Counted from the stretch's first letter, positions 11,945 to 36,839 are shown. The stretch is 64,000 nt of DNA from Oscillospiraceae bacterium (GCA_045596005.1 JAZOBQ010000016.1:1783-65782); one strand, 5' to 3'. Program-made: numbers and translations. The notes: generated from the sequence alone by a model not told the origin.

Positions 11945-12082
11945 TATAGTTGTCCAAACGGTGGGCTCATACAGGGGCATATTTGTGCAAAATGTGCAAT
12001 CTGTGTCGGGAGATGACGATTTTGCAAATGCCTTGTGTTTGCCGCAGAGACACATTCAATAAAAAGGAATGGAGAATGAAGA

Positions 12083-15000
12083 ATGAAAGCTAAGAAACTG
12101 TTTGCACTTGTGCTTGTTCTGGCCATGGTCGTTTCTCTCGTACCTGCAGTTTATGCTGCCGAGACCGATCCCCTGAGCATCGCAGATGCAAAGGTCACCG
12201 TCCTGACCCCCAAAGTCGACGGTAAGGACCTCATCGTTACCAAGTATGAGGACACCTATTGCGCAAGCCCCAACCGCCCTGCTGATCAGCAGATAGCACT
12301 TTTTGTTCCTGAAACTGCAACCGCCGATTCCCCCATTATTTACATGGTCGATAACTCCGGCTGGCGCAGCGATGCTTATGCAGATGTTAAGAATACCGTT
12401 GCCAGCTACGGCAAGGAAATGCAGACCCTGCCTCCCTTCCAGGGCGGCGGCACCGTTGAGGTACAGGTAGGCGACTACAAGACCGGCGAAAATGACCGCA
12501 TCGGCGAGTGCCTTGCAAATGGCTACATCATCATGGTAGCAGGTCTCCGCAGCCGCGCTGACGGCCTGACCGGCGAGGAGTATCTCGGCCATTCTCCCGC
12601 AACCATGACCGATGCCAAGGCTGCTATCCGCTTTGTCAAGTACAATGCAGATGCTCTGCCCGCAGGTAACACCGACCGCATCGTAATCACCGGCACCTCC
12701 GGCGGCGGCGCTCTGAGCGTTGTCACCGCTGCATCCGGTAACTCCGCAGACTACTACGAGTCCCTCTATGAGATCGGCGCAGCCGGCATCGTGAAGAATG
12801 CCGACGGCAGCTACAGCGACACCCTTTCCGACGATATCTGGGCAACCATCGCTTACTGCCCCATCACCGACCTCGGCAATGCCTGCGCAGCCTATGAGTG
12901 GCAGTGGGCAGACGCACGTATCGCTCTCATCGAGAGCGGCGCTGACCTCGGCAGCGGCTTCATGGCTCCCAAGTATCCCGCAGCAGAGACCATGGCTGAG
13001 GCTACCGAATACCTCATTGCACGCTATGAGGCATATCTCGATTCTCTCGGACTCGAGACCGTTTCCGCAGCAAACCTCGAAGAAACCATCATCAAGCACA
13101 TGACTGCCGAGATCGAAGAGTCCATCAAGGAAATCGGCGTTGAGCAGATGAAGGCTGACCTCAAGGGCGCTGACTGGCTCGTATTCAACGAGGACGGCAC
13201 CTACACTTATGATTATGAAAAGCATGTCAACTGGGTCGGCACCCAGACTGCTTTCAAGGCTCCCTCTGCTTTCTCCAACGTTGGTATGAAGGCATGGGCA
13301 GGCAACATGAACGAAGACGACCTCTTCGGCAGCCGCAGTGATGCTTACAGCCCCTTCAACGCATATGCATGGGAGCATGACGATACCGATAACGAAGTTG
13401 GTATGGACGACACCGGCCTGACCTGGGACGAGTACATGGCAACCGCAGAAGGCAAGGCTCTTGCAAAGCAGATCAAGATGACCAGCCCCATCCAGTATCT
13501 CCAGAGCGAGACCGACGGCGATTCCGCTCCCAACTGGTACGTCCGCTACGGTATGGCTGACCGCGACAGCTCCTTCGCTGTTGAGGCAGTTCTGAACGCA
13601 GCTCTCGACGCCGACAAGTCCATCGAGGACAAGACCTTCGAGTACGCATGGCTGAAGGGTCACGCCGGCGACTACGACGTTCAGGAAGCTTACGCATGGC
13701 TCGCTGAGCAGCTTGCTGAGGACACCGATCCTCTGAGCTTCGCTGACGCAAAGAAGACCGTTCTTACTCCCAAGCTCGACGGCAAGGACATCACCGTTAC
13801 CATGTACGAAGATGTCTACTGCGCATCTCCCAACCGCGTACAGGATCAGAAGATCGCTGTTTATGTTCCCGACAACGCAACCGCATCCTCTCCCATTATT
13901 TTCATGGTCAACAACGGCGGCTGGCAGTCCAACTCCTACTCCGGACGCAACGGCGTTGACACCTATGGCTGGGTCGAAGAGACCAAGCGCGGCGAGACCA
14001 AGCTTGTCCTGAAGGGCAACTATGTCTCCACCTCCGACTCCGATGCAGTCGGCAAGGCTCTCAGCGAGGGTTATGTTATCGTTTCCTGCGGTGCACGCAG
14101 CCGCAACAACGGTGCTACCGATGGCCTCTACCTCGGCCACAGCCCTGCAACCATGACCGATACCAAGGCTGCATTCCGCTATCTGCGTTACAATGCTGAC
14201 CTGCTGCCTGCAGGCGATCCCGAGAAGATCGTTGTCACCGGCACTTCCGGCGGCGGCGCTCTGAGCGTAGTTCTCTCCGCTTCCGGTGACAGCGCTGACT
14301 ACTTCGAGTCCCTCTACGAGATCGGTGCAGCCGGTATCGAAAAGAAGGCAGACGGCAGCTACGTTTCCACCATTTCCGACGCCATCTGGGGTACCATCGC
14401 ATACTGCCCCATCACTGACTTCGCAAGCGCATGCGCAGCTTATGAGTGGACTTGGGGCGCTGCCCGTACCGCTCTTATGGAAGCAGGCGCTAAGGGTTAT
14501 GATTACGCAGGCATCAGCGCTGATGAGCAGAACGCTGCATCCGCTGAACTGAAGGCCAGCTTCGAAGAGTATCTTGATGCTCTCGGCATCGGCGTCACCT
14601 CCGATACCATGGAAGATGCTATCATCGAACTCATGGAGAAGGAAATTGCCGAGTCCATCAAGGAGTTCGGCGTTGCAAAGATGAAGAAGGATCTCGGCGA
14701 CTATGACTGGCTCGTTATCAACGACGACGGCAGCTTCACCTATAACTATGAGAAGCATGTTCTCGCAACCGGTATGGAATCCACCTTCAAGGCAGCTTCT
14801 GCATTCTCCAACTACGGCCTGTACCTTGACGAACAGGAACAGCGCAACGAGGACAACCTCTTCGGCACTGTAAACGATGACTACAGCCCCTTCAACGAGT
14901 ATGCATGGAACAACGACAAGAGAGAAAACGAGGTCGGTAAGGACGACACCGGCAAGACCTGGGACGAGTACATGGCAACTGCCGAAGGCAAGGCTCTTGC

Positions 15001-15667
15001 AAAGCAGCTCAAGATGACCAGCCCCATTGAGTACCTGCTGAGCGAGACCGACGGCACCTCCGCTCCCAACTGGTACGTACGCTACGGTATGTATGACCGC
15101 GACAGCTCCTGGGCAATCGAGACCATGCTGTACTACACCATCCTCGAAGACAAGTCCATTGAGGACATCGATTTCGAGTTCGCATGGCTGAAGGGTCACT
15201 CCGGCAACTATGATGTTCAGGAAGCCTACGCATGGCTGGCTGAGAAGGTCGGCAACAGCGCTCCCGTTGCCACCAACCAGAACATCACCGTTGACGGCAA
15301 GGTCGTTAAGCCTGAGGCTTACAACGTAGGCGGCGAGAACTATTTCAAGCTCCGCGACATCGCTTACCTGCTCAACGGCACCGACGCTCAGTTCTCCGTT
15401 GATTACATCGACGCTGCACGCGCAGTCTATGTCGTCACCGGCGAAGCTTACAAGGCCATCGGCGGCGAGATGGAGAAGGGCGCAGACAAGTCCGCAAGCT
15501 GCGTACTCAGCACCCAGTCCGTCATCATCGATGCTCTTGCATCCAACATCAAGGCTTATAACTTCGGCGGCAACAACTACTTCCGTCTCAGAGACCTCGG
15601 CGATGCTCTCGGCTTCTCCGTTGACTATGACGATGCTACCCGCACCGTTATCATCGAGACCAAGTAA
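12083..15667 (+). CDS. secreted protein with two tandem tannase-like (tannin acyl hydrolase, subtype-B-like) modules and a C-terminal copper-amine-oxidase-N-like stalk domain
   Basis: 1194 aa. Signal peptide MKAKKLFALVLVLAMVVSLVPAVYA/AE, with GGAG 8 nt upstream. Each module carries 'HSPATMTD.KAA.R...YNAD..PAG....IV.TGTSGGGALS', 'AYCPITD...CAAYEW', 'WYVRYGM.DRDSS' and 'WLKGH.G.YDV'. From memory these match the Ser, Asp and His regions of Lactobacillus plantarum-type tannase. The C-terminal ~135 aa has two 'GG.NYF.LRD' stalk repeats. Confidence 0.85.
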   Translation: MKAKKLFALVLVLAMVVSLVPAVYAAETDPLSIADAKVTVLTPKVDGKDLIVTKYEDTYCASPNRPADQQIALFVPETATADSPIIYMVDNSGWRSDAYADVKNTVASYGKEMQTLPPFQGGGTVEVQVGDYKTGENDRIGECLANGYIIMVAGLRSRADGLTGEEYLGHSPATMTDAKAAIRFVKYNADALPAGNTDRIVITGTSGGGALSVVTAASGNSADYYESLYEIGAAGIVKNADGSYSDTLSDDIWATIAYCPITDLGNACAAYEWQWADARIALIESGADLGSGFMAPKYPAAETMAEATEYLIARYEAYLDSLGLETVSAANLEETIIKHMTAEIEESIKEIGVEQMKADLKGADWLVFNEDGTYTYDYEKHVNWVGTQTAFKAPSAFSNVGMKAWAGNMNEDDLFGSRSDAYSPFNAYAWEHDDTDNEVGMDDTGLTWDEYMATAEGKALAKQIKMTSPIQYLQSETDGDSAPNWYVRYGMADRDSSFAVEAVLNAALDADKSIEDKTFEYAWLKGHAGDYDVQEAYAWLAEQLAEDTDPLSFADAKKTVLTPKLDGKDITVTMYEDVYCASPNRVQDQKIAVYVPDNATASSPIIFMVNNGGWQSNSYSGRNGVDTYGWVEETKRGETKLVLKGNYVSTSDSDAVGKALSEGYVIVSCGARSRNNGATDGLYLGHSPATMTDTKAAFRYLRYNADLLPAGDPEKIVVTGTSGGGALSVVLSASGDSADYFESLYEIGAAGIEKKADGSYVSTISDAIWGTIAYCPITDFASACAAYEWTWGAARTALMEAGAKGYDYAGISADEQNAASAELKASFEEYLDALGIGVTSDTMEDAIIELMEKEIAESIKEFGVAKMKKDLGDYDWLVINDDGSFTYNYEKHVLATGMESTFKAASAFSNYGLYLDEQEQRNEDNLFGTVNDDYSPFNEYAWNNDKRENEVGKDDTGKTWDEYMATAEGKALAKQLKMTSPIEYLLSETDGTSAPNWYVRYGMYDRDSSWAIETMLYYTILEDKSIEDIDFEFAWLKGHSGNYDVQEAYAWLAEKVGNSAPVATNQNITVDGKVVKPEAYNVGGENYFKLRDIAYLLNGTDAQFSVDYIDAARAVYVVTGEAYKAIGGEMEKGADKSASCVLSTQSVIIDALASNIKAYNFGGNNYFRLRDLGDALGFSVDYDDATRTVIIETK
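12161..15250 (+). repeat. in-frame tandem duplication of the ~510-aa tannase-like module (12161-13720 and 13721-15250)
   Basis: The two halves align end to end, e.g. ETDPLSIADAKVTVLTPKVDGKDLIVTKYEDTYCASPNR vs DTDPLSFADAKKTVLTPKLDGKDITVTMYEDVYCASPNR. The DNA copies are clearly diverged by eye, so the duplication is old. Confidence 0.85.
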
Positions 15668-15743
15668 GCTGCGATAAACCAGAAGTTGAGAATGAAGGCA
15701 CATAAAGGCTTTGATTCCCGGCTTTGATACAATATAATAATGG

Positions 15744-15785: not shown

Positions 15786-15790
15786 CAAAA

Positions 15791-15830
15791 AAACCGGCTA
15801 AGCTTCCCGTGTGGGCGGCTTAGCCGGTTT
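15791..15830. terminator. bidirectional terminator between the tannase gene and the radical SAM gene
   Basis: Perfect stem CCGGCTAAGC (15794-15803) / GCTTAGCCGG (15818-15827). An A-run lies upstream and a T-run downstream. It sits between convergent genes. Confidence 0.7.
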
Positions 15831-15846: not shown

Positions 15847-16845
15847 TTATATCGCACCGGAGAGGGGGCAAGCATCGCTGCCGAAGCGGAAATGACCATC
15901 CGATGAATCGTTCAGCGCCGGACAGGGGCGGCAGTAATTGCAAAGCCTGCAATCTGCACAGGGATTATCTTTTGCCTGATCTTCGGCCTGCCTGAGCTGA
16001 CGCAGAATTTCCGAGCGTGTCCAGTATTCTTCTGCGCTTGACCATTTCTCAGGATAGTTCAAGTGGCGGCAGGGTGTGAACTGACCGTCCACATCTATGC
16101 AATAGCTGCACAATGCGGCTGTGCAGCCTTTGTAAAGACCGCGGTTAGTATTTCCCCAGAGCTTATTGTCGCAGCTGAGAGCCAGCAGTGAGGAAAAACA
16201 ATGCTGGATTATCAGCTCCACATTTCCGTGGCTGCGTTTCGCAAGACCTGCGACATATTTCATTTGTTCAAGTGTCGGATAGGTATCCAGTTTACCTTCG
16301 GATGTGGGTTTGGGGTCGATGATAATTATGCCGCCGACCTCATATTTTTGAGCCAGAGCGATCATATCGGGAAGCTTCGCCACAGAGTTTCTGTGCATGA
16401 CCCAGTTTATCATTGTGTTTGGAAACTGCTTTTTCTGTAAAAGCTCCAAAGCATCGATCGCATATTGATATCCGTCGCGTGTTTCTGCGTTGTCCGTTTC
16501 GGTAGGACCGTTGAGCGAGACGCAGATCATATCGATGCCGGCACTTACGAGTTTGTCGAGAGCCTCTTCGTCAAAGTGCCAGCCGGAAATGGCAATGCTG
16601 GGCGCGATGCCAAGGCGGCGCGCCGCGGCAACGACCTCGTAAAGATGCGGATAGCACATGGTTTCTCCTCCGCTGAGTTCCACATGCTCCACGCCGAGAC
16701 GGGCAGCTTCTTCCAGCGCTTTTATCGCTGCCTCCGCGGGAATGTCCTTTCCGCCCTCCAGAGTGCAGTAACATTGTGGGCAGCGGAGGGGGCAGCGCGT
16801 GGTAAGTTCGATGTTTATTCCGTTTGGGATATACTCAATGCTCAT
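15847..16845 (-). CDS. radical SAM / SPASM-domain peptide-modifying enzyme
   Basis: 332 aa. CPLRCPQC (CxxxCxxC) at residues 18-25, 'ELSGGE' SAM motif and a C-terminal Cys-rich SPASM-like region ('CTAALCSYCIDVDGQFTPC', 'CADCRLCNYCRPCP'). GAGGTG RBS 8 nt upstream. Immediately downstream of two precursor genes. No N-terminal extension that could hold an RRE. Confidence 0.9.
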   Translation of the reverse strand: MSIEYIPNGINIELTTRCPLRCPQCYCTLEGGKDIPAEAAIKALEEAARLGVEHVELSGGETMCYPHLYEVVAAARRLGIAPSIAISGWHFDEEALDKLVSAGIDMICVSLNGPTETDNAETRDGYQYAIDALELLQKKQFPNTMINWVMHRNSVAKLPDMIALAQKYEVGGIIIIDPKPTSEGKLDTYPTLEQMKYVAGLAKRSHGNVELIIQHCFSSLLALSCDNKLWGNTNRGLYKGCTAALCSYCIDVDGQFTPCRHLNYPEKWSSAEEYWTRSEILRQLRQAEDQAKDNPCADCRLCNYCRPCPALNDSSDGHFRFGSDACPLSGAI

Positions 16846-16865
16846 TTTTTTCCACCTCTACCATT

Positions 16866-16892
16866 GAGAGCTGCCCACATCGGGCAGCTCTC
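16866..16892 (-). promoter_or_regulatory. intercistronic stem-loop between precursor genes and the radical SAM gene
   Basis: Perfect 11-bp stem GAGAGCTGCCC (16866-16876) / GGGCAGCTCTC (16882-16892) with a 5-nt loop, in the 62-nt gap. No U-tract follows on the minus strand. Confidence 0.6.
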
Positions 16893-16907
16893 AGATGCAT
16901 ATATCTC

Positions 16908-17225
16908 TTAGCGGCTCTTATACCACTTGTAGATGGCGAGACCGGCACCGCCGATAGCGATGGCTGCCTTTGCCACTGCCCATGCGGTAGCGGTGACGGC
17001 AACGCCGCCGCTTACGTCCTCGAGCGCGTTCTCGTCAAGCTCGTCGCCGGGATTAGTGAGCTGATCGAGTGCACGGCCGATTTCGAGTACTTCTTCCAGA
17101 GTGAACTCAACGCCGTTTTCGGCAAAGAGACTGCGAACGGCCTCGGGATTTTCCTGAGCGAGCATTTTTTCAACAAAAGCCTTGTCTTCCATGAGCTTGG
17201 ACAAAACTGCATTTTCAATAGCCAT
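16908..17225 (-). CDS. precursor peptide P1: Nif11-like leader, double-glycine site, 31-aa Cys-free hydrophobic/cationic core
   Basis: 105 aa. The leader '..EDKAFVEKMLAQENPEAVRSLFAENGVEFTLEEV..DELDENALEDVSGG' has Nif11-type shape, with hydrophobics at -4/-7/-12 from GG. Core: VAVTATAWAVAKAAIAIGGAGLAIYKWYKSR. GGAGG RBS upstream. Confidence 0.85.
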   Translation of the reverse strand: MAIENAVLSKLMEDKAFVEKMLAQENPEAVRSLFAENGVEFTLEEVLEIGRALDQLTNPGDELDENALEDVSGGVAVTATAWAVAKAAIAIGGAGLAIYKWYKSR

Positions 17226-17260
17226 ATTATATATCCTCCCCTGATTTTTTTCTTGAAGTT

Positions 17261-17581
17261 TTACCAGATGGTCTTTTTGCCGGCGGCTTTTCTGGCCTTG
17301 TTGACCTCTGCCATCGTGTTGGCGAACAGGGCAACACCGGAAGCGACGATAGCGATCTCTGCCAGCAGACCGCCGGAAACGCCTTCGAGTGCGGCTTCGG
17401 AAAGCTCGTCTTCGTTTCCGCCGATAACCATTTCGGCGATCTGGTTGATCTGCTCAAGTGTGAAGTCCACACCCTTATCGGCGAATGAGCTCTGCACGTC
17501 TTCGGGATCTTCCATAGCTGCGATGGCGGCAACGAAATCCTTGTCGCCCATCAGGTCTTTTATCTTGTTGATGTTTTCCAT
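17261..17581 (-). CDS. precursor peptide P2: Nif11-like leader, double-glycine site, 35-aa Cys-free core
   Basis: ORF 17261..17833 trimmed to ATG 17581 (AAGGA 8 nt upstream), giving 106 aa. Leader 'MENINKIKDLMGDKDFVAAIAAMEDPEDVQSSFADKGVDFTLEQI..DELSEAALEGVSGG'. Core LLAEIAIVASGVALFANTMAEVNKARKAAGKKTIW. Confidence 0.85.
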   Translation of the reverse strand: MENINKIKDLMGDKDFVAAIAAMEDPEDVQSSFADKGVDFTLEQINQIAEMVIGGNEDELSEAALEGVSGGLLAEIAIVASGVALFANTMAEVNKARKAAGKKTIW

Positions 17582-17586
17582 ATCAT

Positions 17587-17745
17587 TTATCCTTTCTTTT
17601 TGTTTATTATCAATGCCAGTACAAGGCCGGCCACGAGTCCCAGTATGGTGAAGATGAACGAGGTCCCGGCAAGATAGTCTATAACAATGCCGACCACGCC
17701 GCCGATCAGTATGTCGGAGATGAAGCTTAAAGTTTTGATTTTCAT
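17587..17745 (-). CDS. 52-aa two-TM small membrane protein (AtpZ/AtpI-like pattern); candidate immunity or accessory protein
   Basis: Below the ORF-track size cutoff; translated by hand. AAAGGAGG lies 6 nt upstream of ATG 17745. Product: MKIKTLSFISDILIGGVVGIVIDYLAGTSFIFTILGLVAGLVLALIINKKKG, with stop TAA at 17587-17589. It ends 5 nt before the P2 start. Confidence 0.6.
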   Translation of the reverse strand: MKIKTLSFISDILIGGVVGIVIDYLAGTSFIFTILGLVAGLVLALIINKKKG

Positions 17746-17843: not shown

Positions 17844-18548
17844 TTATTTTGCAATGATACAGACGGCGGTATTGTTGTCCTGCTTCGGGTCAGCGGCGGC
17901 GAGGACTATTCGGCGCATCGAATCGAGCCATTCGCCCGCTGTGGAGGTCTCGGCAAGAGTGCGGAGCATGTCGTCCTCCGTTACCGGCTCCCAGAAACCG
18001 TCCGAGCAAAGCAGGAATCTGTCGCCGGGGAGTACGGACAGCTCGGTGCTGTCTATCTTCGGTTTTTCGCCGACTTCACCCAACACGCGGAAAACTTTGT
18101 TTCTGTCCTTGTGATGGCGGAGCGCATCGGGGGGCAGCTCACCAAGCCTTACGGCCATTTGTACAAGGCTGTGGTCGACGGACTGAAATATTATCTCACC
18201 GCCGCGAAACTGGTAGATCCTGCTGTCGCCGACATGGGCAGCTACAGCCGAGCCCTCTTTTAACCACAGCGCCGCAAGGGTCGTGTGGGCAAAGGCAGTC
18301 TTGGCACAGATGACATCGCTCGCGTTCAGTATGGCGTAGAGAAGCTCATCCTCATCGAAATCCTTGCCGTCAACAAAATCTGTGATTTCATCGACGGCGA
18401 GCTGCGAGGCGATCTCGCCACCGGCGTGTCCGCCGAGACCGTCGGCCACTATGGCGAGCAGGGCAGAGCCTGACGCGCTCACTCCGAGGGAGTCTTCGTT
18501 GTTGCCGCGTTTTCCAATATCGGTATATACGGAGTACTGATAATCCAT
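17844..18548 (-). CDS. PP2C-family Ser/Thr phosphatase
   Basis: ORF 17844..18560 (alternative GTG start) trimmed to ATG 18548 (MDYQYSVYTDIGKRGNNEDS). Contains 'AIVADGLGGHAGGEIAS' and 'LLCSDG' PP2C motifs. Confidence 0.85.
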   Translation of the reverse strand: MDYQYSVYTDIGKRGNNEDSLGVSASGSALLAIVADGLGGHAGGEIASQLAVDEITDFVDGKDFDEDELLYAILNASDVICAKTAFAHTTLAALWLKEGSAVAAHVGDSRIYQFRGGEIIFQSVDHSLVQMAVRLGELPPDALRHHKDRNKVFRVLGEVGEKPKIDSTELSVLPGDRFLLCSDGFWEPVTEDDMLRTLAETSTAGEWLDSMRRIVLAAADPKQDNNTAVCIIAK

Positions 18549-18585
18549 GGACGAGATCACATCCTTGCGTTTGAAATCATCATTA

Positions 18586-18614
18586 CATACACGGCTTAAT
18601 GATCGTTTGTTACA
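18586..18614 (-). promoter_or_regulatory. island promoter motif copy D (TGTAAC-N16-GTGTATG)
   Basis: The minus strand reads TGTAAC AAACGATCATTAAGCC GTGTATG. It lies between the LRR lipoprotein stop (18638) and the PP2C start. The spacer is 1 nt longer than in the other copies. Confidence 0.4.
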
Positions 18615-18637
18615 TAAAGAAAGTATGCGGAAAAGTG

Positions 18638-20005
18638 TCAGGAGGGGTCTTTTATCTCATAATCGTTTATCCAGGCGACGCAGCCGGGAAGATTCTTGCC
18701 CCAGCCTTCTTCCTTCTTGACTGTGCTCCAATTGCCGGCAGAGCCGTTATAGTAGAGCGTTCTCAGCTCACTTGTGCCGTAGAAAAATTCGGAGCCTACG
18801 GTTTTTAGAGTACGGGGAAGGGAGAGCTTCGTCATGGATTCGCAGTTATAGAAAGCGCGGGTGCCGATGTTCTCGAGGCCTTCAGGCAGGATCATTTCAA
18901 GAAGGTTTTTACAGCCGTAAAAACCTTGCTCTCCAATAGAAAGCACCTGAGCGCCGAGTTTTACAGCTTCGAGGCTTTCGCAGTCCTTGAAGCTCGCAAA
19001 GCCAACGGATGAGCCGCACTCAAGGGTCTTAAGCTCGCTGCAGCCGTTGAAAAGGAGATCGCCCATGGTTTCAACATTAGAGCCTATCCTTGCCGTTACT
19101 ATTCCGGTGCAGCCGGAGAACGCGCGGCTGCCGATCACGGTGACGCTTTCGGGAAGCGTGACTTCCTTAAGTTTTGCGCAGTCTGCGAAGGCATAGTCGC
19201 CGATGGTTTTGAGGTTTTCGGAAAAGCTTACATTCTGCAGCTCGCTGCAGCCGCTGAAGGCGTGGCTTTCGAGATGCTCAACGCTGTCTTCGAGAACGAG
19301 GCTGACGAGCTTTGTATTGTTGCTCAGCGCGGCTGCGCTGACATTGCAGGCCACGCGAAGACTGGTAAGACCGGTGCAGGCATCGAAAACGCAGTTGCCG
19401 AGCTGCTGAATGCTGCTACCGAGAATGGCGTTTTTAAGCTCGCTGCAGCCGGAGAATACATAAGAGCCGACGGTCTTGATATTGCCGCCGAGGTTGACGT
19501 CAGTAAGCTTGACGCAGCCGGAAAAAGCATAGTCTGCGATCTCCTCAAGTCCGCTGCCGAAATCGATCTGGGTGAGCTCACTGCAGTTTGCAAAGGCGTA
19601 GTACTCAATTTTGCGTACACTGTCGCCGATGATGATCTTCTGCACCTTGTCAGCTTTGGCGAATACTTTTTCACCGATGAGACTGACTCCGTCGCCGATC
19701 TCGATGATGGTAATGCTGTCGACAAAGTCTTTGAATGCCGTGGTATCGGTAATGCTCTGGGTGATATCCGCACCGCTGAGCAGGAGTCTGCCGTCCTCGT
19801 ATAAGGAGAACAAAACGCCGCTGCCAAGCATTTCCTCATAAATTACGATGGGTTCGTTTCGGCTATAGTTTCCGTCGGACTGAGTGCTCTGGCTGGGCTG
19901 GGTCTCCAGTGCGGGAAGGCTTTCGGGGTCGGGACCTGAGCTGCCGCAGCCGACCATGAGCAGGGCGAGGGAAAGAGAGAGTCCCAGAATGATTCTTTTC
20001 ATCAT
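18638..20005 (-). CDS. lipoprotein with BspA-type leucine-rich repeats
   Basis: 455 aa. Lipobox 'LLMVGC'. About 12 tandem ~23-aa repeats of the form 'I.IGD.AF..C..L..V.LP.S' (e.g. VTLPESVTVIGSRAFSGCTGI). Confidence 0.85.
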   Translation of the reverse strand: MMKRIILGLSLSLALLMVGCGSSGPDPESLPALETQPSQSTQSDGNYSRNEPIVIYEEMLGSGVLFSLYEDGRLLLSGADITQSITDTTAFKDFVDSITIIEIGDGVSLIGEKVFAKADKVQKIIIGDSVRKIEYYAFANCSELTQIDFGSGLEEIADYAFSGCVKLTDVNLGGNIKTVGSYVFSGCSELKNAILGSSIQQLGNCVFDACTGLTSLRVACNVSAAALSNNTKLVSLVLEDSVEHLESHAFSGCSELQNVSFSENLKTIGDYAFADCAKLKEVTLPESVTVIGSRAFSGCTGIVTARIGSNVETMGDLLFNGCSELKTLECGSSVGFASFKDCESLEAVKLGAQVLSIGEQGFYGCKNLLEMILPEGLENIGTRAFYNCESMTKLSLPRTLKTVGSEFFYGTSELRTLYYNGSAGNWSTVKKEEGWGKNLPGCVAWINDYEIKDPS

Positions 20006-20014
20006 AATATCTCC

Positions 20015-21370
20015 TCAGATGGTGATATGCACAAATGTAAGGGTGGTGGAGCCGAGACGGATCTGATCTCCGCATTTGAGCTGAGCGGAAGTGCCGCGAG
20101 CGAGCTTGCTGCCATTCAGATAGCTGCCGTTGCCGCCCTCCGGACTTTCGTCGACGAGGTGGAAAGCGTCCCCACTGCGCCTTACAAGGGCGTGTGCGGC
20201 GCGGTGTATCTTTACGTCTGCCAGAGTGCCGTCGGGCCATTTGCTGTTTCGGTTCAAGGGCAAAGTCTCGCTTTCCAACAGCTTGACGGCACCACTGCTT
20301 CCGTTCATGAGCAAAGCCGCGAAGCCATTATCGAGTATTTTGCGTGCCTGCGCGCCGGTTACAAGAATGAGCGCTTCATCGTTGAGACGGAAAAGGGCAG
20401 GCGTTTCAAGCTGTATATGCTTGCCGGACTCAATCGCTTCACCCTTGATGAAAGTGCCGTTTGACGAACCGGAGTCTTTCAGGAAATATTTCTGATTATA
20501 CTGCAATATTTCCGCGTGGAGCTTGCTGATGGACTTGTTGCCCTCGATGACAATGTCGCACTTGATGGGAGAGCGGCCGATTATTGTCTGCGGCTTTTTC
20601 AGTATGTATGCCTTTTCTGCTGCCGGATGGAGCAAAACGGCTGGGATCTGGTTTACAACGCGGACGGTCGCGTCTGCGTCGGACTCATAACCGTCACAGA
20701 CGGTCATGTCGCCGGGATCGCACTCAAAAACTGTGTGGTTGTCGGCTTCATCGCCAAGATCCGCGTAAGAGTTGTTTTCCGGTTCCGGTTCGGGCTTGGA
20801 GAGATCCTTGAGCACGAAGTTTTTGATATCAAATGCCGGAGTTCGCTCCTTTTTCTGAACGGGAGCAGGCTCGTTTTTCGGCGGCTGCTCTTTTTGGGGC
20901 ACGGCATCCGGCTTGAGGCGCAGCGAGCCGGCCGGTGCTTTGCAGGCAGTAAATTCAGCGGTCTCGCAGAGCTTGGCGATGAGAGCGGCGTCGCCGGGAT
21001 AGTCGCTGCAGCGAAGATAATGAAGGTGGCTCAGCTGCATGCGCAGACCCTTGGGCAGCTCCGCATTGTCGATCAGAACGGGAATGACCTTCTTATTGCA
21101 TTTAAGTGCGTAGACTATCTCGCTTTTGCAGTTGTGGGAGAGACTGGAATCAGCGGAGATGAAAGCGACGACGACTTTGGCGTCTTCGAGATGACTTTCA
21201 ATGTTGTCCAGCCAGTCGTCGCCGGCGTGGTTTCCGTCATCATACCAGATGCGGTAGCCGCCTAGAACGACCTGCTCGAAAAAAGGATAGAGCTTTGCCT
21301 TGTCCTTGTGGCAATAACTCATGAAGATATAAGGTTCTTTTCCCTCATAGGGGATGGCGCGACAAATCAT
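20015..21370 (-). CDS. TIR domain protein with two C-terminal FHA domains
   Basis: 451 aa. The N-terminus 'YIFMSYCHKDKAKLYPFFEQVVLGGYRIWYDD..GDDWLDNIESHLEDAKVVVAFISADSSLSHNCKSEIVYAL' has the TIR_2 pattern, including the conserved Glu after 'C.SE'. FHA1 is 'IIGRS..CDIVI.GNKSISKLHAEI......FLKDSGSSNGTFI'. FHA2 is degenerate ('HLVDESPEGGNGSYLNGSKL'). The RBS overlaps the STAS stop. Confidence 0.85.
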   Translation of the reverse strand: MICRAIPYEGKEPYIFMSYCHKDKAKLYPFFEQVVLGGYRIWYDDGNHAGDDWLDNIESHLEDAKVVVAFISADSSLSHNCKSEIVYALKCNKKVIPVLIDNAELPKGLRMQLSHLHYLRCSDYPGDAALIAKLCETAEFTACKAPAGSLRLKPDAVPQKEQPPKNEPAPVQKKERTPAFDIKNFVLKDLSKPEPEPENNSYADLGDEADNHTVFECDPGDMTVCDGYESDADATVRVVNQIPAVLLHPAAEKAYILKKPQTIIGRSPIKCDIVIEGNKSISKLHAEILQYNQKYFLKDSGSSNGTFIKGEAIESGKHIQLETPALFRLNDEALILVTGAQARKILDNGFAALLMNGSSGAVKLLESETLPLNRNSKWPDGTLADVKIHRAAHALVRRSGDAFHLVDESPEGGNGSYLNGSKLARGTSAQLKCGDQIRLGSTTLTFVHITI

Positions 21371-21385
21371 ACTTATCTCATCTCC

Positions 21386-21751
21386 TTAGTCTTCTATCAT
21401 AAGAAGCTCGGTTATGCCGGTCTCGTCCATTTCGCGGTAGACAGCATCGGGGATATTCTTAAGGACAATTTCACCGCGGCGGAAATGGTCAATAAGCTGC
21501 TGGGAATTGAGCAGGGCGTTCAAAACGGAGGGGGAGATAAAGCTGACTTCGCCAAAATCCAGATTCACTCTGACGCCAACGGTCGTGAAAGCGTCAAGCT
21601 CGTCCTGAATGTGGTGCGCGGCCTCGCTTCTGAGCTCACCCTTGAGTTTTATGAGGATACCGCCGTCGGTTTCAAGTTCCTCTGCGCTCAAAACCAGCTT
21701 TTCTCCGTCGTAAAACAGCATGGTGTCGTCCTGTATTTTTCTTGTAAGCAT
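21386..21751 (-). CDS. STAS-domain protein (anti-sigma-factor-antagonist-like)
   Basis: 121 aa. 'LIKLKGELRSEAAHHIQDELD......VNLDFGEVSFISPSVLNALL' fits the SpoIIAA/RsbV fold pattern, with a Ser at the usual phospho-site position. GAGGTG RBS. Confidence 0.75.
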   Translation of the reverse strand: MLTRKIQDDTMLFYDGEKLVLSAEELETDGGILIKLKGELRSEAAHHIQDELDAFTTVGVRVNLDFGEVSFISPSVLNALLNSQQLIDHFRRGEIVLKNIPDAVYREMDETGITELLMIED

Positions 21752-21762
21752 GCTTTTTCACC

Positions 21763-24714
21763 TCATTCCGCTATCTGACGGCTTGCAAGGGCATAAAACA
21801 TTCCGTTTTTGTCCTGCATCAGGGAGTCATAGCTGCCCTCCTGAATCACTTCGCCGTCGTTCATAACAATGATGCGGTCGCAGTTTTTGATGGTGCTGAG
21901 TCGGTGTGCAACGACTATTCTTGTGACCTTCATTTTGTCGAGGCTACTGCTGACAGCGGCCTGGGTCATATTATCAAGAGCGCTGGTCGCCTCGTCGAAA
22001 ATCAGTATTTTCGGATTGCCGCAGATGGCGCGTGCTATAAGTATTCGCTGCTGCTGGCCGCCGGAAATGGTGCTGCAGTTTTCGCTCAGCATTGTGTGAA
22101 GTCCCATGGGCATCTGAGCGATATCCTCTTTGAGACCGACCTGCTGCACAACTTCGTTTACGCGGGCAAGCTTGGCTTCGGGAGCGGTTATGGTGATATT
22201 CTCGTAAATCGTGCCGGAAATGAGCCTTCCGTTCTGGAGTACAACGCCGAGCTGACGTCGGTATGCGCCCTTGTTGATGGAACGCAGGTCTTTTTTGTCG
22301 ACCGTTACCATGCCGCTTTGAGGAGCTTCGAAGCCGAGAAGAAGCTTGAGCAAGGTGGATTTTCCGCAGCCGGAGGGGCCAACGATGCCGACGTATTCGC
22401 CGGGACGGATATCAATGGAAATGTCGTTGAGGACATTTTTGCCGCCCTTGTCATAGGCAAAGCTGACGTGCTCAAGGCTGAGTCCGCCGCTGAGCATGCC
22501 GGGCATTTCCTTCGATTCGTCATCTTCGGGCACTGTGGAGAAAACGGGCCAGAAGCGCATGATCTCGTTTCGCTCCTTGAAGAGCTGCATGGCTTCACCG
22601 ACGAGTGAGTCAAGTGCGCCGGTGAAGGCGCCGAAAGCGGAGTTGAAAGCGACAAAGGTGCCGACGGAAATGCTTCCGAAATCAAGCTTTCTGATAATGT
22701 ACCAGTAAAGCACCATCGAGAAAACGGACTTGATAACGGTGGAGATCGCCTCTTCAACGGAGATGAGGCGGTTGACGCGGATCTCCTCGTACTGCTGACG
22801 GGCGTAGGGGCGCATGAAAGACAGCAGCGCGCGTTCTTCGACTCCTGCCATGCGTATCTTGTCAACACCGCTCAGATACTGATAAAGCTTGCTTCCGGAC
22901 TCGGACTCCGCCTCCGCGATGCGGAGCTGAGCCTTGTTCACGGTGGCGGTGATAGCCACGACGATGATGAGGTAAACGGCGTATATTCCGAGGCTGACTC
23001 CCGTGAGTTTGCCGCTGTAGCTGAACATACGGATAAGGTAAAACACGGAGAAAACAGCGGAAATGCCGCTGACGATCAATGTGTTTGCATAAGCGGAGGC
23101 GGTTTGTCCAATGCCGGAAACGCGTCCGGCGAGGTCGGCGCTGTCATAGGCGCGGAAGAAAGATTCCGGCAGGTGGAACAGACGGTGGTAAACCGCGTTT
23201 TGCAGTTCGTTGCCGACCCGACTCGTCATACGGTATGCGAATAGGTTTTTGACGATGGAGAAAGCAACGTTGCCTATCATAAAGGTGAGCATAACAAGAC
23301 AAAGCTGGGTAAGATTGCCGATGTTGCCCACGGGAATATAGTCGTCATATATCATTCCGTTGAGCGTGGGGATAAGCACGCCTATCAGCGAGCATAAGAT
23401 GACAAGAACGATATACGGTCTGAGGTCGCGGGGCTTGATGCTTTTTTTGCAGAAGCTGATTACGTCCTTTTTGTTCAGAGACTTCAGCGGAAGCGTTCTG
23501 CCGATGGACCAGGCCTGGGGCGAGATCTGCTGCGCAAGCTCGGGTGTGAGCGGAGAGATGCTGTCATCGGAGCAGCGAAAAAACATATATTTTCCCTTTT
23601 TGTCGGGCACGACAGCGACGGTTTCTTTGTCCAGCGTGCCGACAAGTCCGCCGCAGTCGGATTTATACCACTCCGCGTCGAGAACGACCTTTCTGCAGAT
23701 GAAATTCGATGCGCGTGCGATCTCACTGAGCTCGGGATTCTTGCCGCAGCGGGTGTGAAGCTCGTCGGCCTTTATAAGTGAGATGCCGCTATGTCTGCAC
23801 ACAAACTGGAGAGCCTGATAGTAGTCGTTTCCGCTTTGCTCGGACTGGCCGAGATCGGAAAAGGTGTCTTTCAGTACGTTTACGACCTTTTGGCGGGACT
23901 CACTGTCTGCGCTGTCGGCTTTGATGATGAAGCCTTTGTCCTTGACAACGATCTGCTTCGTGTAAAACTCAATGAGACTGTTTTCGAAGCCTTCCTGCTC
24001 GTATGTGGAAATACCGCGGCGCATAAGGAACTCTCTGTGCAGTTCGGCGGTCGCGCCTCCGGCCACGGGCGAGAGTACAGCGTCATCTCCGGAGGTCTTG
24101 ATCTGCAGACGCCAGTTTTTGTGGTTTATATCCCTGAAAACAAGCGCAGGGATCAATTTCTGCTCGTCTCCGGATTTGAGCTCGCAATAGAAAACGGGTT
24201 TGCCTGCCCGTCCGTTTTCCAAAGGGACTATGGAGACAAAAACCTCGCCTTTTTCAAGGAGATAGGCTTCGCCTGTCTCCCGGGAAAGAAAGGTGTCCGT
24301 GCTGGAGAGGATGATCTTTTCGCTGAGACGGCAGCGTTCATAATAGTCGAGCAGACTTCCTGCAAAACCGAGACTGTCAAAGCCGGAGATTTCCCTGCGG
24401 CCGAGAAAGTTTTTGTAAAGTACGCTCGTGGCGCTGTTGTGGGATACGCTGAGCATGGCCTCGCCGCCCTCAGCCTTTATGAGCAGATACCAGCTGCGCT
24501 GAAGCTCGTCCTCATGGGCGAGCGAAGGAACGGCTCTTTGCCTGTCGCTGTCCTTGACGGAGGCGTAGAAACAGGCCTCGCCGTATTTTCCGTTTTCAAC
24601 AGGGATGATATATACAAGAACTTCTCCCTTTTTTACGCGGTAGACCGCGTTGGGAGACTGGGAGAGGATATACTCATTTTCGGCCAAAACGATTTCGTTT
24701 GTGTTTTCGTTCAT
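21763..24714 (-). CDS. NHLM/NHLP-type bacteriocin export ABC transporter (permease/ATPase) with duplicated N-terminal beta-barrel module and a Cys-less C39-like domain
   Basis: 983 aa. Walker A 'GPSGCGKST', signature 'LSGGQQQR' and a 6-TM exporter core. The N-terminal ~260 aa are two copies of a ~115-aa module ('KKGEVLVYIIPVENGKYGEACFY' / 'EKGEVFVSIVPLENGRAGKPVFY'). Confidence 0.9.
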   Translation of the reverse strand: MNENTNEIVLAENEYILSQSPNAVYRVKKGEVLVYIIPVENGKYGEACFYASVKDSDRQRAVPSLAHEDELQRSWYLLIKAEGGEAMLSVSHNSATSVLYKNFLGRREISGFDSLGFAGSLLDYYERCRLSEKIILSSTDTFLSRETGEAYLLEKGEVFVSIVPLENGRAGKPVFYCELKSGDEQKLIPALVFRDINHKNWRLQIKTSGDDAVLSPVAGGATAELHREFLMRRGISTYEQEGFENSLIEFYTKQIVVKDKGFIIKADSADSESRQKVVNVLKDTFSDLGQSEQSGNDYYQALQFVCRHSGISLIKADELHTRCGKNPELSEIARASNFICRKVVLDAEWYKSDCGGLVGTLDKETVAVVPDKKGKYMFFRCSDDSISPLTPELAQQISPQAWSIGRTLPLKSLNKKDVISFCKKSIKPRDLRPYIVLVILCSLIGVLIPTLNGMIYDDYIPVGNIGNLTQLCLVMLTFMIGNVAFSIVKNLFAYRMTSRVGNELQNAVYHRLFHLPESFFRAYDSADLAGRVSGIGQTASAYANTLIVSGISAVFSVFYLIRMFSYSGKLTGVSLGIYAVYLIIVVAITATVNKAQLRIAEAESESGSKLYQYLSGVDKIRMAGVEERALLSFMRPYARQQYEEIRVNRLISVEEAISTVIKSVFSMVLYWYIIRKLDFGSISVGTFVAFNSAFGAFTGALDSLVGEAMQLFKERNEIMRFWPVFSTVPEDDESKEMPGMLSGGLSLEHVSFAYDKGGKNVLNDISIDIRPGEYVGIVGPSGCGKSTLLKLLLGFEAPQSGMVTVDKKDLRSINKGAYRRQLGVVLQNGRLISGTIYENITITAPEAKLARVNEVVQQVGLKEDIAQMPMGLHTMLSENCSTISGGQQQRILIARAICGNPKILIFDEATSALDNMTQAAVSSSLDKMKVTRIVVAHRLSTIKNCDRIIVMNDGEVIQEGSYDSLMQDKNGMFYALASRQIAE

Positions 24715-26906: not shown

Positions 26907-27735
26907 CCCAGATATCGCTGAGCTTGGAGAAAAGTTTGGTGATGGGGGCGACCTCGTCGGTCACTATTCTGGCGGTGACGAGACTGCCGTTTTGTACATT
27001 GACGGTGGAACCCTTGTCGTTGGACCAGTAGTAGCCGCTGAGGGTATTGGCGTCGGGGTAAAGCTCACATGCGACGGCTACAACTGCACCGTCGCGCACG
27101 AATATGGATTCAAGGTTGTTGCCGCTGCCTATGACGCTGGCCATGGCTTCGCTGGGGGTCGCATAGGCGTCGATATTGATGACACGGGCGACCATATTGC
27201 CGTAGGAACTGCTGTCGAGGGAGTCAAGCGTGACATTTACCTGCATGCCGCGCTCGAGTTTTTTCGCGTTGGCAAGAGGAACGTAGCAGACGATCATCTG
27301 CGAAGCCTGGGAGGTGGGGGATACGCGGATTATATCCTTTCCAGGAGTGAACTTGTCGTCATTTTGGACTGCGATCTCGGAAACGACACCGACCTGGTCT
27401 GAATATACGACAACGACTTCGTTGGAGGAATTGCGGTAGGTCATGACAGGGTCGCCGAGATGCACTTCGTCTCCGGCGCGGACGCGCACGGATACGACGG
27501 TACCAGCATCCTGAGTATAGACGGAGTTGGATCCGACTACAGAACTGACAAGGCCCTTCGCGGTGACCGTCTCGGGGATAGTTCCGACAAAGGACCAGAT
27601 AAGGCTTATTACAATAATAAAAGTAATGCCGATAAGAGCGAGCCAGGACATTGGTGAGGTGATTTTGAGCACCTTGTCGAGCTGCTCGGGATTGGACATT
27701 CTTTCGAGAGATGATTTTCTGTAGAGATCAGCCAT
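26899..27735 (-). CDS. HlyD-family secretion adaptor (NHLM bacteriocin system type)
   Basis: 278 aa. One N-terminal TM segment ('WLALIGITFIIVISLIWSFVG') followed by a beta-rich barrel-sandwich region. It overlaps both neighbouring genes by 8 nt. Confidence 0.8.
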   Translation of the reverse strand: MADLYRKSSLERMSNPEQLDKVLKITSPMSWLALIGITFIIVISLIWSFVGTIPETVTAKGLVSSVVGSNSVYTQDAGTVVSVRVRAGDEVHLGDPVMTYRNSSNEVVVVYSDQVGVVSEIAVQNDDKFTPGKDIIRVSPTSQASQMIVCYVPLANAKKLERGMQVNVTLDSLDSSSYGNMVARVINIDAYATPSEAMASVIGSGNNLESIFVRDGAVVAVACELYPDANTLSGYYWSNDKGSTVNVQNGSLVTARIVTDEVAPITKLFSKLSDIWGD

Positions 27736-28270
27736 GGTTTATGTACTCCTTCCAGTAGGCGTCGTTGAAAGAGGCGAGCTTGTCCAGCGCGCGGGACAGC
27801 AGAACGCGGGCGTTTCCGGGACTGATGCCGAGCTTCTTGGCGATTTCGTCACTGGAGCGATTCTCAAAATAGCGCATCATGACGATCTGCTGCTGGCGTT
27901 CGGGCAGCTGCTTAATGGCCATCATAAGGGCGCTGTGAAGCTGTTCAAGATAAATGCCCTCGTCCATATCTATGCTCTGGTCGCGCATGGTATCGGAGAC
28001 CGACTCAAAATCAACATAGGAGACATGGTCGCGGTAATAGTTCTTGAGGCGGCTGTTGACGATGAGATAAAGCCATGTCGTCAAAGAGCTTTTTTCGGGG
28101 TCGTAGTCATCATAGTGGCTGTAGCAATATATAAAGACTTCGCTCGTGAGGTCTTCGGCATCAGCATAGTTGGAGATCCTTTTATGAACATAGCCGAGAA
28201 CACGGTCAAAATTGGCGCTGTAAAAATCCTCGTATGCGGGTTTTTCATTTTTCGGCAAAAGTTTCAGCAT
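27728..28270 (-). CDS. ECF-like (two-domain) sigma-70 family RNA polymerase sigma factor
   Basis: ORF 27728..28408 trimmed to ATG 28270 (MLKLLPKNEK). Region 2: 'DAEDLTSEVFIYCYSHYDDYDPEKSSLTTWLYLIVNSRLKNYYRD'. Region 4: 'LPERQQQIVMMRYFENRSSDEIAKKLGISPGNARVLLSRALDKL'. It is the first gene of the minus-strand arm. Confidence 0.85.
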   Translation of the reverse strand: MLKLLPKNEKPAYEDFYSANFDRVLGYVHKRISNYADAEDLTSEVFIYCYSHYDDYDPEKSSLTTWLYLIVNSRLKNYYRDHVSYVDFESVSDTMRDQSIDMDEGIYLEQLHSALMMAIKQLPERQQQIVMMRYFENRSSDEIAKKLGISPGNARVLLSRALDKLASFNDAYWKEYINHG

Positions 28271-28286
28271 TTTTTTCACCCCAAAG

Positions 28287-28315
28287 TGTAACGTTTCGTT
28301 TTCTGCTGTGTAATA
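28287..28315 (+). promoter_or_regulatory. island promoter motif copy C (TGTAAC-N15-GTGTAATA)
   Basis: The plus strand reads TGTAAC GTTTCGTTTTCTGCT GTGTAATA. It lies 46 nt upstream of ATG 28361 and is divergent from the sigma gene. Confidence 0.5.
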
Positions 28316-28360
28316 AGAGACAGAATCATAATATTGACTTGGGAAAGGATGCGAAAAATT

Positions 28361-30275: not shown

Positions 30276-30318
30276 AACGGCGGGACGCCGATGCAGATAG
30301 GAAAGAAGGAGGCTAACC

Positions 30319-31764: not shown

Positions 31765-31782
31765 ATGTACGGGAGGATAGCT

Positions 31783-33870: not shown

Positions 33871-33871
33871 G

Positions 33872-34444: not shown

Positions 34445-34459
34445 AAGGGGGTGCAGCAA

Positions 34460-36016: not shown

Positions 36017-36036
36017 CGGGGTGAATCTCTCAGAAT

Positions 36037-36795: not shown

Positions 36796-36839
36796 AACAC
36801 AGCCAAATTTCATCCATTAATTTGAGAGAGGGTGTTCGC

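Follow-up and report, generated by a model that had tools for sequence, protein, structure and literature searches.

The 64,000-nucleotide stretch of Oscillospiraceae bacterium DNA analysed here (GCA_045596005.1 JAZOBQ010000016.1:1783-65782; further called the window, in which all positions are counted) contains a small operon, located entirely on the minus strand, that encodes two precursor peptides, P2 and P1, and a radical S-adenosylmethionine (SAM) enzyme with a SPASM domain. The coordinates agree with the initial annotation, according to which the enzyme gene directly follows the genes of P2 and P1 (Table 1). The chances are about even that this enzyme is the sole tailoring enzyme of a conserved operon for peptides with Nif11-type leaders and a double-glycine (GG) cleavage site, and that it acts on the C-terminal tryptophan region of these peptides.

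The genes of P2, P1 and the enzyme are one transcription unit. A hairpin sits between P1 and the enzyme gene and a strong intrinsic terminator follows the latter, and the arrangement is therefore read as a single short operon. For the hairpin, the centroid structure lies at -25 kcal/mol (z = -5.57; 0 of 200 shuffled sequences were equally stable), and the terminator reaches -28.7 kcal/mol (z = -7.73). The hairpin is a candidate attenuator or mRNA-stability element, which would set the peptide-to-enzyme ratio by lowering the expression of the enzyme. Hairpins of this type are a common arrangement between precursor and modification genes in peptide operons. A GAGGTGG ribosome-binding site is located upstream of the enzyme gene.

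Table 1. Features of the small operon and of the genes around it in the window
Feature	Position	Strand	Remarks
1215-aa open reading frame	12056..15703	-	overlies the tannase-like gene
1194-aa secreted protein, tannase-B-like	12083..15667	+	two tandem halves
Intrinsic terminator	15787..15830	-	operon end; 14-bp stem, then T-run
Radical SAM/SPASM enzyme gene	15847..16845	-	332 aa
Hairpin	16865..16893	-	between P1 and the enzyme gene; 12 bp, perfect, no U-run
P1 precursor	16908..17225	-	105 aa
P1 core	16911..17003	-	31 aa
P1 codon of Trp101	16923..16925	-	
P2 precursor	17261..17581	-	106 aa
P2 core	17264..17368	-	35 aa
P2 codon of the last residue, Trp	17264..17266	-	
52-aa protein	17587..17745	-	first gene of the small operon; two predicted membrane helices
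STAS, TIR+FHA, BspA-type LRR and PP2C phosphatase genes	17844..21751	-	Pfam/NCBIfam matches
Promoter-like site	17854..17881	-	upstream of the small operon; 9/12 consensus match, weak evidence
Second NHLP-type ABC subunit	21763..24714	-	983 aa; TIGR03797, 731.4 bits (cut-off 709.4)
C39-peptidase ABC exporter	24732..26906	-	TIGR03796, 935.9 bits (cut-off 853.3); PF03412
HlyD-type secretion adaptor, NHLP system	26899..27735	-	TIGR03794, 171.6 bits (cut-off 156.2)
ECF-type sigma factor	27728..28408	-	cluster head; TIGR02937, 106.6 bits
Second peptide pair, first gene	39056..39472	-	Nif11 leader, GG site
Second peptide pair, second gene	39424..39759	-	Nif11 leader, GG site

The Nif11-type leader comprises residues 1-74 in P1, ending with DVSGG, and residues 1-71 in P2, ending with GVSGG. 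The cores that follow the GG site, VAVTATAWAVAKAAIAIGGAGLAIYKWYKSR and LLAEIAIVASGVALFANTMAEVNKARKAAGKKTIW, are exactly those quoted in the initial annotation; the P1 core has the C-terminus YKWYKSR and the P2 core the C-terminus KKTIW. P1 passes the Nif11-like leader model TIGR03798 with 33.6 bits (cut-off 32.3) and P2 lies slightly under the cut-off with 30.2 bits; the GG motif is present in both. As was found by phmmer, P1 and P2 are homologous (E about 1e-13), and both leaders share the end VSGG. The cores are cationic (+4 and +3) with many small-xxx-small motifs. P1 marginally passes the class IIb lactobin A/cerein 7B model TIGR03949 (21.7 bits, cut-off 21.5), and the search with this model gave no match for P2. 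The number of Cys residues is zero in both full-length precursors, which bears out the initial statement that thioether chemistry of the sactipeptide or ranthipeptide type is excluded on P1 and P2, as their cores offer no Cys donor.

A word-indexed search revealed 356 homologues of the enzyme at E <= 1e-10, almost all of them unnamed and derived from metagenomes, and an exhaustive profile search among 1.84 billion proteins gave 249 representatives of 50% identity clusters at E <= 1e-30. For the study of genomic context, 80 related loci with a homologue of the enzyme were collected by a scan of one genome per species, and the neighbouring genes were counted with the proteins of the window as queries; the counts given below refer to unique sequences from related genomes and are not independent events. 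The loci belong mostly to Clostridia and Negativicutes from rumen, gut and digesters, and a few are labelled Treponema, Spirochaetaceae, Synergistaceae or Acidobacteria. Precursors of the P1/P2 type, with a Nif11 leader and a GG site, lie beside the enzyme homologue in 59 loci (154 hits, at most six per locus). ATP-binding cassette (ABC) exporters occur nearby in 50-51 of the 80 loci, the HlyD adaptor in 32, a sigma factor in 21 and a STAS gene in 18; 20 loci have no recognisable precursor nearby, and many of these are short contigs. In a metagenome-assembled genome from water-deer rumen (L001), where the enzyme shows 60% identity, the gene order of the window is kept and orthologues of both peptides are present, that of P2 ending with KGKKTIW. 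A simple neighbour-joining distance tree placed the window in a clade with L001-L005, L008, L011, L016, L023, L027, L035 and L055, and throughout this clade the enzyme gene stands directly after the peptide genes.

The association of enzyme, peptides and exporter is thus conserved and not a matter of chance. The initial annotation regarded the combination of this chemistry and leader as unusual for a two-peptide pair; with 59 of 80 loci it is instead a recurrent system. It also named a grouping with enzymes outside the peptides that ribosomes produce and that are modified after translation (RiPPs), such as anSME, as a reason to abandon the idea of a maturase. By genomic context the enzyme falls with RiPP loci, and the conserved adjacency to precursors and to exporters of the NHLP type indicates a peptide maturase and rules out the anSME-type reading. 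Some related loci (L043, L053, L058, L059, L060 and L073) carry a second radical SAM/SPASM enzyme of about 507 aa with C-terminal TPR repeats (for example, L058:4229-5752), which is closest to TIGR04103 (219 bits, below the cut-off), so that these clusters encode two radical SAM steps. The co-occurrence of both enzymes shows that the enzyme studied here and the TIGR04103-like enzyme are distinct families.

For the comparison of cores, each precursor reading frame was opened at its first start codon, and a pattern served to locate the GG site. A few cores were mis-cut in this way, for example at the internal GGAG of P1; the C-termini are unaffected. The core sequences are hypervariable, with a character anywhere between strongly hydrophobic and hydrophilic, and 105 of the 148 unique cores (71%) are free of Cys, so that thioether chemistry is ruled out across the family and not for P1 and P2 alone. 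Their conserved feature is the C-terminal Trp: it is the last residue in 125 of the 148 unique cores and lies within the last six residues in 134, against a background of 0.9% of the open reading frames of at least 200 aa in the same loci that end with Trp. Terminal Trp is found in 81 of 87 cores from loci containing a prenyltransferase (see below), in 22 of 28 cores from other loci and in 21 of 31 cores from the window's own clade, the loosest of the three groups; the frequency is thus 68-93% depending on the clade. Even in the window's clade it exceeds the background about 70-fold, and K or R occurs within the last six residues in 31 of 33 cores there. No conserved position or motif was found in the hydrophobic parts of the cores across the family. 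Of 160 precursors, 138 have L-x4-[LMIV] in the leader directly before the GG site.

T-[RKNG]-x-[RK]-W occurs in 43 of 87 cores from prenyltransferase loci and is limited to such loci, and position -4, mostly Thr in the clade that contains the prenyltransferase, varies in the others. T-[RK]-x-[RK]-W was considered as a motif with a fixed crosslink partner and rejected: since it is confined to prenyltransferase loci (43 of 87 cores against 0 of 59), it is unable to define the radical SAM reaction.

Two observations link the Trp with the enzyme and not with leader or exporter. In Sarcina sp. DSM 11001 (L079; 7944-12115) the enzyme is located among WXG100/DUF4176 genes of the type VII secretion type, with no Nif11 peptides and no ABC exporter at the locus, and the two 460-aa proteins encoded directly downstream of it end with PRRW and FRRW. 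Conversely, the window contains a second pair of peptides with a Nif11 leader and a GG site, located 22 kb from the enzyme gene, with no modifying enzyme adjoining. The cores of this pair, FAVTTAILIAAAKIAGVGLASFLAAYLVTRSISKALHSLGC and FNGMILIFGTLIVVSAIAGAKAGWHDGKKKACKDPRRD, have one Cys each and the C-termini HSLGC and KDPRRD, with no terminal Trp, and the pair serves as an internal control; the ABC system of the cluster may also export this pair, or the pair may be modified in trans. At another locus (L023; 3235-8996), again without Nif11 peptides, the neighbours of the enzyme gene are two other radical SAM genes and a gene for an FtsK/SpoIIIE ATPase of 1536 aa. The settings of L079 and L023 leave room for the thought that the enzyme may possibly modify the C-termini of proteins. 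As judged by the conservation of the sequences, the terminal Trp region of the cores is probably the site of a modification.

The cysteine motif of the enzyme, C18-x3-C22-x2-C25, starts at residue 18, and in the AlphaFold2 (AF2) model (pLDDT 90.9, pTM 0.90) the first beta-strand starts at residue 9, which leaves no space for an N-terminal RiPP recognition element (RRE). This agrees with the earlier claim that the enzyme has no RRE/PqqD-like domain at its N-terminus; a protein of the PqqD/RRE type is also missing among the 12 cluster genes scanned. Of the Pfam models, only the generic radical SAM domain PF04055 is matched (E 4.5e-22), and the SPASM model PF13186 is not matched at E 0.01, being recorded for some homologues. 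Besides C18, C22 and C25 of the SAM cluster, an alignment of 25 homologues shows C27 and C64 to be invariant, as well as C216, C241...G254-x4-C259, C296-x2-C299-x5-C305-x2-C308 and C326 in the C-terminal part. This corresponds to the SPASM cysteine pattern, except for the last spacing, which is x2 instead of x3, and the SPASM assignment is right as far as can be judged by the cysteine motif and the predicted fold. Going by the sequence, the eight invariant C-terminal Cys residues could fully ligate two auxiliary clusters, and an open thiolate site need not be assumed.

A comparison with the NCBIfam models of SPASM maturases had been proposed from the outset. Forty NCBIfam families matched the enzyme, and among the best 25 of 40, which were examined against their curated cut-offs, every score was 4- to 17-fold below the cut-off. 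The best match was PqqE (TIGR02109; 98.4 bits against 381), which covers residues 6-171 only, the N-terminal half; further matches were NirJ2 (72 bits against 500), MftC (TIGR03962; 64.1 bits against 265, residues 9-306, E 1.2e-17), StsB (55 bits against 625) and the Nif11-class peptide radical SAM maturase 3, TIGR04103 (43.2 bits against 725). Models of SkfB, PapB or any epimerase were not among the best 25 of 40 matches. With the Pfam hit being generic, an attempt to name the enzyme from curated libraries had to be given up, and by its sequence the enzyme belongs to none of the PqqE, SuiB, MftC or other curated families tested.

The Foldseek search with the model placed first SuiB, the Lys-Trp crosslinker of streptide (5v1s; query-normalised TM-score, TMq, 0.75, target-normalised 0.60; E 7e-16; 18% identity). 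Further matches included anSME (TMq 0.69, E 7.7e-11), SkfB (TMq 0.66, E 2.6e-12), PqqE (TMq 0.62, E 2.3e-13) and, at rank 40, the epimerase EpeE (TMq 0.52, E 5.3e-9); the fold of the enzyme aligns with the SPASM enzymes SuiB, PqqE and anSME over the full length. The profile search of PDB sequences ranked PqqE first (6c8v, E 1e-23, full length). Judging by sequence and model together, the enzyme is a compact SPASM enzyme without an RRE, and its nearest characterised relatives join an aliphatic carbon to an aromatic ring.

Homologues of the enzyme in sister clades provide a further indication of its site of action. In about 30 loci a domain of about 300 aa is fused in frame to the N-terminus of the radical SAM enzyme (for example, L029:7032-8978, L020:1115-2992 and L014:7086-8975), and in about 11 further loci it is encoded by a separate neighbouring gene. 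No Pfam or NCBIfam model matches this domain, and its bromodomain matches in the sequence-profile search of the PDB were dismissed as chance. Its AF2 model, built on an alignment of 7 sequences, has a pLDDT of about 85 over the domain and repeated alpha-alpha-beta-beta units. All 50 best Foldseek matches are ABBA aromatic prenyltransferases, headed by the bacterial tryptophan dimethylallyltransferases 5-DMATS (6zs0), IptA and PriB, and they also include the cyanobactin Trp prenyltransferase KgpF; the TM-scores of 0.45-0.5 are lowered by about 70 low-confidence radical SAM residues included in the model. The domain is thus predicted to have the fold of an ABBA prenyltransferase of the Trp type, and its invariant Glu, Arg, Lys and Tyr residues are of the kinds used for indole and diphosphate binding, a role they would presumably play here.

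In three loci (L018:7056-9521, L049:1625-4102 and L065:3375-5780) a triple fusion with a C-terminal isopentenyl diphosphate (IPP) isomerase was found. The isomerase is a Nudix protein with LLHRAFS and CCSHP motifs and is encoded by the next gene in L012 (7313-7840); its fusion implies that dimethylallyl diphosphate is supplied inside the same protein. A DUF7005 protein (PF22541, with the HExxH-like motif YHECTH) is frequent as well (about 30 loci, for example L012:8779-9654), and in L007 (6063-8969) it precedes the prenyltransferase and radical SAM parts within one fusion protein. Also recurrent is a UPF0489 protein (L012:7837-8697, L014:8923-9882), which is not encoded in the window. The window contains no prenyltransferase domain or DUF7005 (tblastn E > 0.8), nor an IPP isomerase, and the distance tree shows its clade to be uniformly without all three. 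Since its clade lacks the fusion partners, the window represents the minimal form, with the enzyme alone. The fusions to a Trp-type prenyltransferase and to an IPP isomerase link the enzyme physically with a Trp-directed reaction. The former suggests that prenyltransferase and radical SAM domain share a substrate and the part of it on which they act. In open-access literature, no account of a prenyltransferase-radical SAM fusion was found.

Taken together, the sequences make it somewhat more probable than an even chance that the enzyme modifies the Trp-containing C-terminal region of the peptides. In the proposed mechanism, P2 and P1 would be translated with their leaders of about 70 residues, and the enzyme, having no RRE, would make direct contact with the leader, probably at its acidic L-x4-L stretch, which closely precedes the GG site. 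Leader recognition without an RRE is unproblematic for leaders of the Nif11 class. In SuiB, the leader is held by the catalytic barrel and not by the RRE. The L(X)4L region of Nif11 leaders is described as a hotspot of modifying-enzyme action, and MppC, a Trp prenyltransferase, strictly requires the leader (PMC12715784). The enzyme would cleave SAM to give the 5'-deoxyadenosyl radical and then modify the basic, Trp-containing C-terminus of the core, KKTIW in P2 and YKWYKSR in P1. The C39 ABC exporter, with its partner ABC protein and HlyD, would finally cut after the GG site and secrete two cationic, membrane-active peptides resembling class IIb bacteriocins, the antimicrobial role being a supposition like the Trp site and the mode of leader binding.

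Among the reactions considered, the most likely is a C-C crosslink that joins the indole of Trp to an sp3 carbon of a nearby residue, yielding a small C-terminal cyclophane with a mass change of -2 Da; as this type of bond is proposed by analogy with SuiB/StrB and PqqE, we put it forward tentatively. Known Trp links made by radical SAM enzymes include Lys-Trp in StrB and Arg-Trp in WprB (PMC11851443). A Trp crosslink would be applicable to both P1 and P2, and the basic residues beside Trp fit it. The initial annotation proposed either epimerisation or C-C crosslinking. Its idea of crosslinking within the K/W clusters is favoured, as the conserved feature of the cores is the C-terminal Trp and the nearest enzymes, PqqE and SuiB, crosslink aromatic residues; its suggestion of Val/Ile/Ala epimerisation fits less well, given the unconserved cores and the much closer fold match to SuiB than to EpeE.

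Several points weigh against a Trp crosslink as the action of the enzyme. The homology is remote, with the listed curated models far below their cut-offs and an identity to solved structures of 21% or less. Where the locus has no prenyltransferase, the terminal Trp follows widely differing residues (IPW, CTW, LMW, VGW, ISW), and no fixed crosslink partner is therefore evident. P1 itself has no terminal Trp, and the same applies to 23 of the 148 cores. The terminal Trp could simply help the mature peptide to anchor in the membrane; a Trp at the end is known from some bacteriocins that carry no modification, for example leucocin A. In the clades with fusions, the requirement for terminal Trp could come from the prenyltransferase and not from the radical SAM domain. 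Besides, a strictly terminal Trp is more typical of chemistry of the MftC type than of the known cyclophane-forming enzymes, which use an internal aromatic residue.

A known radical SAM/SPASM precedent for the need of a C-terminal aromatic residue is MftC. A similar reaction here would comprise abstraction of a C-beta hydrogen from the C-terminal Trp and oxidative decarboxylation to an indolyl-enamide (about -46 Da), possibly with a second radical step, and of the explanations considered it best accounts for why Trp must be last while its neighbours vary freely where no prenyltransferase is present. The final Trp of the two 460-aa proteins in L079, the alignment of the MftC model over residues 9-306 of the enzyme and the lack of a fused RRE, as in MftC and PqqE, point in the same direction. 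We nevertheless consider such a reaction unlikely, as the score of 64 bits is far below the cut-off of 265, no MftB-like partner is present, and the penultimate residue is unconserved, whereas MftA ends with Val-Tyr; P1 and the 23 cores that do not end with Trp would not be possible substrates. SuiB and PqqE rank first in the fold and profile searches, in which the matches included no MftC structure for comparison. It is likewise rather unlikely, to a very similar degree, that the enzyme carries out some other modification or none on P1 and P2, the peptides being unmodified class IIb-type bacteriocins and the enzyme having another substrate or being a relic left after prenyltransferase loss. 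The class IIb model that P1 barely passes describes unmodified peptides, the window's clade has neither prenyltransferase, IPP isomerase nor DUF7005 and shows the loosest C-terminal motif (21/31), and a quarter of the loci (20/80, many of them short contigs) have no recognisable precursor. Against this reading stand the catalytic and cluster residues, all of which are intact and invariant, the position of the gene, which across the clade immediately follows the peptide genes within a shared transcription unit, and the about 70-fold enrichment of terminal Trp that persists there.

Epimerisation would convert selected L-Val, L-Ile or L-Ala residues of the hydrophobic core to D-residues with no mass change, as in YydG/EpeE or PoyD. 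The cores are rich in these three residues, Nif11/NHLP leaders are used by the proteusin epimerases (PMC11002830), and either of the invariant residues C27 and C64, which lie outside the cluster motifs, might donate the hydrogen atom. We regard this as quite improbable: the hydrophobic core parts have no conserved position or motif, the fold match to EpeE is weak (rank 40, TMq 0.52, compared with 0.75 for SuiB), no epimerase family is found in the best 25 of 40 NCBIfam matches, and both the terminal Trp and the fusion to a Trp-type prenyltransferase would be left unexplained. Modification of the C-terminal Trp region thus remains the preferred reading.

Comparison with known systems shows partial likeness to several of them. 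PqqE, the best sequence relative, is of similar size, has a SPASM domain and no fused RRE, and joins the aliphatic C-gamma of Glu to the Tyr ring in a ribosomal peptide. However, no PqqD, PqqA or other pqq gene was detected among the cluster genes of the window, and PqqE acts on E-x3-Y to give a cofactor, whereas the substrates here are exported GG peptides with Nif11 leaders and Trp. SuiB/StrB, the best structural match, shares a Cys-free substrate and the Trp indole as target, and KKTIW of P2 happens to fit K-x3-W, while P1 does not. SuiB differs in possessing an N-terminal RRE and is only 18% identical; the K-x3-W spacing is not conserved in the present family, and the leader type, exporter and quorum-sensing context differ. 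MftC resembles the enzyme as a radical SAM/SPASM protein without a fused RRE whose substrate must end with an aromatic residue, but this residue is Tyr there and Trp here, and a conserved penultimate Val, MftB and other mycofactocin genes are missing here.

The proteusin and Nif11-NHLP systems (PoyD-type epimerases, PlpX spliceases, TIGR04103) likewise have long leaders of the Nif11/NHLP type, cleavage after GG and the three NHLP export proteins; unlike them, the present system has no XYG splice motif and no RRE partner, and TIGR04103 gives only 43 bits against 725. Class IIb bacteriocins of the lactobin A/cerein 7B group are similar in their two adjacent GG-leader peptides, cationic Gly/Ala-rich helical cores with small-xxx-small motifs and C39-ABC export, but they have short leaders and are unmodified, whereas here Nif11 leaders of about 70 residues and a radical SAM enzyme are encoded in the operon. 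The maturases of sactipeptides and ranthipeptides differ in all respects considered, as there is no core Cys, no N-terminal RRE and, among the best 25 of 40 NCBIfam matches, no curated maturase model above its cut-off here. Among the enzymes that prenylate Trp in ribosomal peptides, MppC, which is of the ABBA type, acts on a substrate with a Nif11 leader (PMC12715784), and PalQ on a strictly C-terminal Trp (PMC13290415). The ABBA fold of MppC is also predicted for the domain fused to the enzyme homologues in sister clades; the window, however, has no prenyltransferase, and PalQ is of the ComQ/IDS type and not ABBA.

Radical-SAM-modified Cys-free ribosomal peptides are known (streptide, darobactin, triceptides, epipeptides, proteusins, mycofactocin), and so are Nif11 leaders with radical SAM enzymes, which makes the general idea unsurprising. 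What is new is the enzyme family without a curated model, the terminal-Trp signature of its substrates and the natural series of fusions with a prenyltransferase and an IPP isomerase. No description of the enzyme family was found in open-access literature, and it may be listed in a bioinformatic survey of radical SAM RiPPs. The system may conceivably represent an undescribed RiPP class with a radical-SAM-modified C-terminal Trp, in which the reaction (for example, oxidative decarboxylation or cyclisation of the terminal Trp) would be new for Trp, the window would hold the minimal form and the RRW proteins of L079 might be included, which would extend the modification from peptides to proteins; this is a speculative possibility.

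At present, no source of new peptide chemistry is richer than radical SAM enzymes, and new pairs of enzyme and motif have usually given a new bond type. The present system is compact, with two peptides, one enzyme and a clear site hypothesis, the terminal Trp; its family, which has no curated name, counts about 250 clusters (50% identity) found mostly in Bacillota of rumen and gut, and the members form a natural series that begins with the stand-alone enzyme and leads to fusions of prenyltransferase, enzyme and isomerase. Should the chemistry prove new, a RiPP class would be gained together with a means of modifying the C-termini of proteins, and it would become clear how long Nif11 leaders direct enzymes that have no RRE. 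If a Lys/Arg-Trp cyclophane is formed, the system would join a known reaction type, its bacteriocin-like scaffold being unusual. The enzyme-peptide system is a good experimental lead.

The 52-aa protein encoded by the first gene of the operon, behind a strong AAAGGAGGA ribosome-binding site, has a weak PF09527 match below the cut-off. No homologue of it was found in any of the 80 related loci, and it was ruled out as a conserved component of the system. Judging by its sequence, it is a candidate immunity or accessory protein. On the other side, the secreted tannase-B-like protein is encoded convergently with the operon, and the long reading frame lying over its gene is probably a shadow frame that gives no reason for gene status.

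The NHLP export trio of the wider cluster is complete, its three adjacent genes each scoring above the curated cut-off. The C39-peptidase ABC exporter is predicted to cleave after the GG site and export the peptides. Cleavage after GG and export are the established function of the TIGR03796 exporter family. The TIGR03797-type subunit has an N-terminal extension of about 300 aa (residues 1-300; 21763-22660 region) that has no Pfam match and appears repeated, with two similar segments of about 150 residues in the translation.

The STAS, TIR+FHA, LRR and PP2C genes may have a regulatory role; the BspA-type LRR protein was called a lipoprotein from its N-terminal sequence only. Their order is the same in L001 and partly the same in L003 and L035, and STAS, TIR-FHA, LRR, PP2C and kinase genes recur beside the system in these three loci. 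The peptide and exporter genes are embedded in an island of Ser/Thr signalling genes, located at 17844-21751 on the minus strand and 28902-38969 on the plus strand. It contains two Ser/Thr kinases, one with TPR repeats and one with an NADase-type glycan-binding domain, as well as two PP2C phosphatases, the TIR+FHA protein, STAS, a VWA protein and several LRR proteins, which suggests phosphorylation-based control of production or export.

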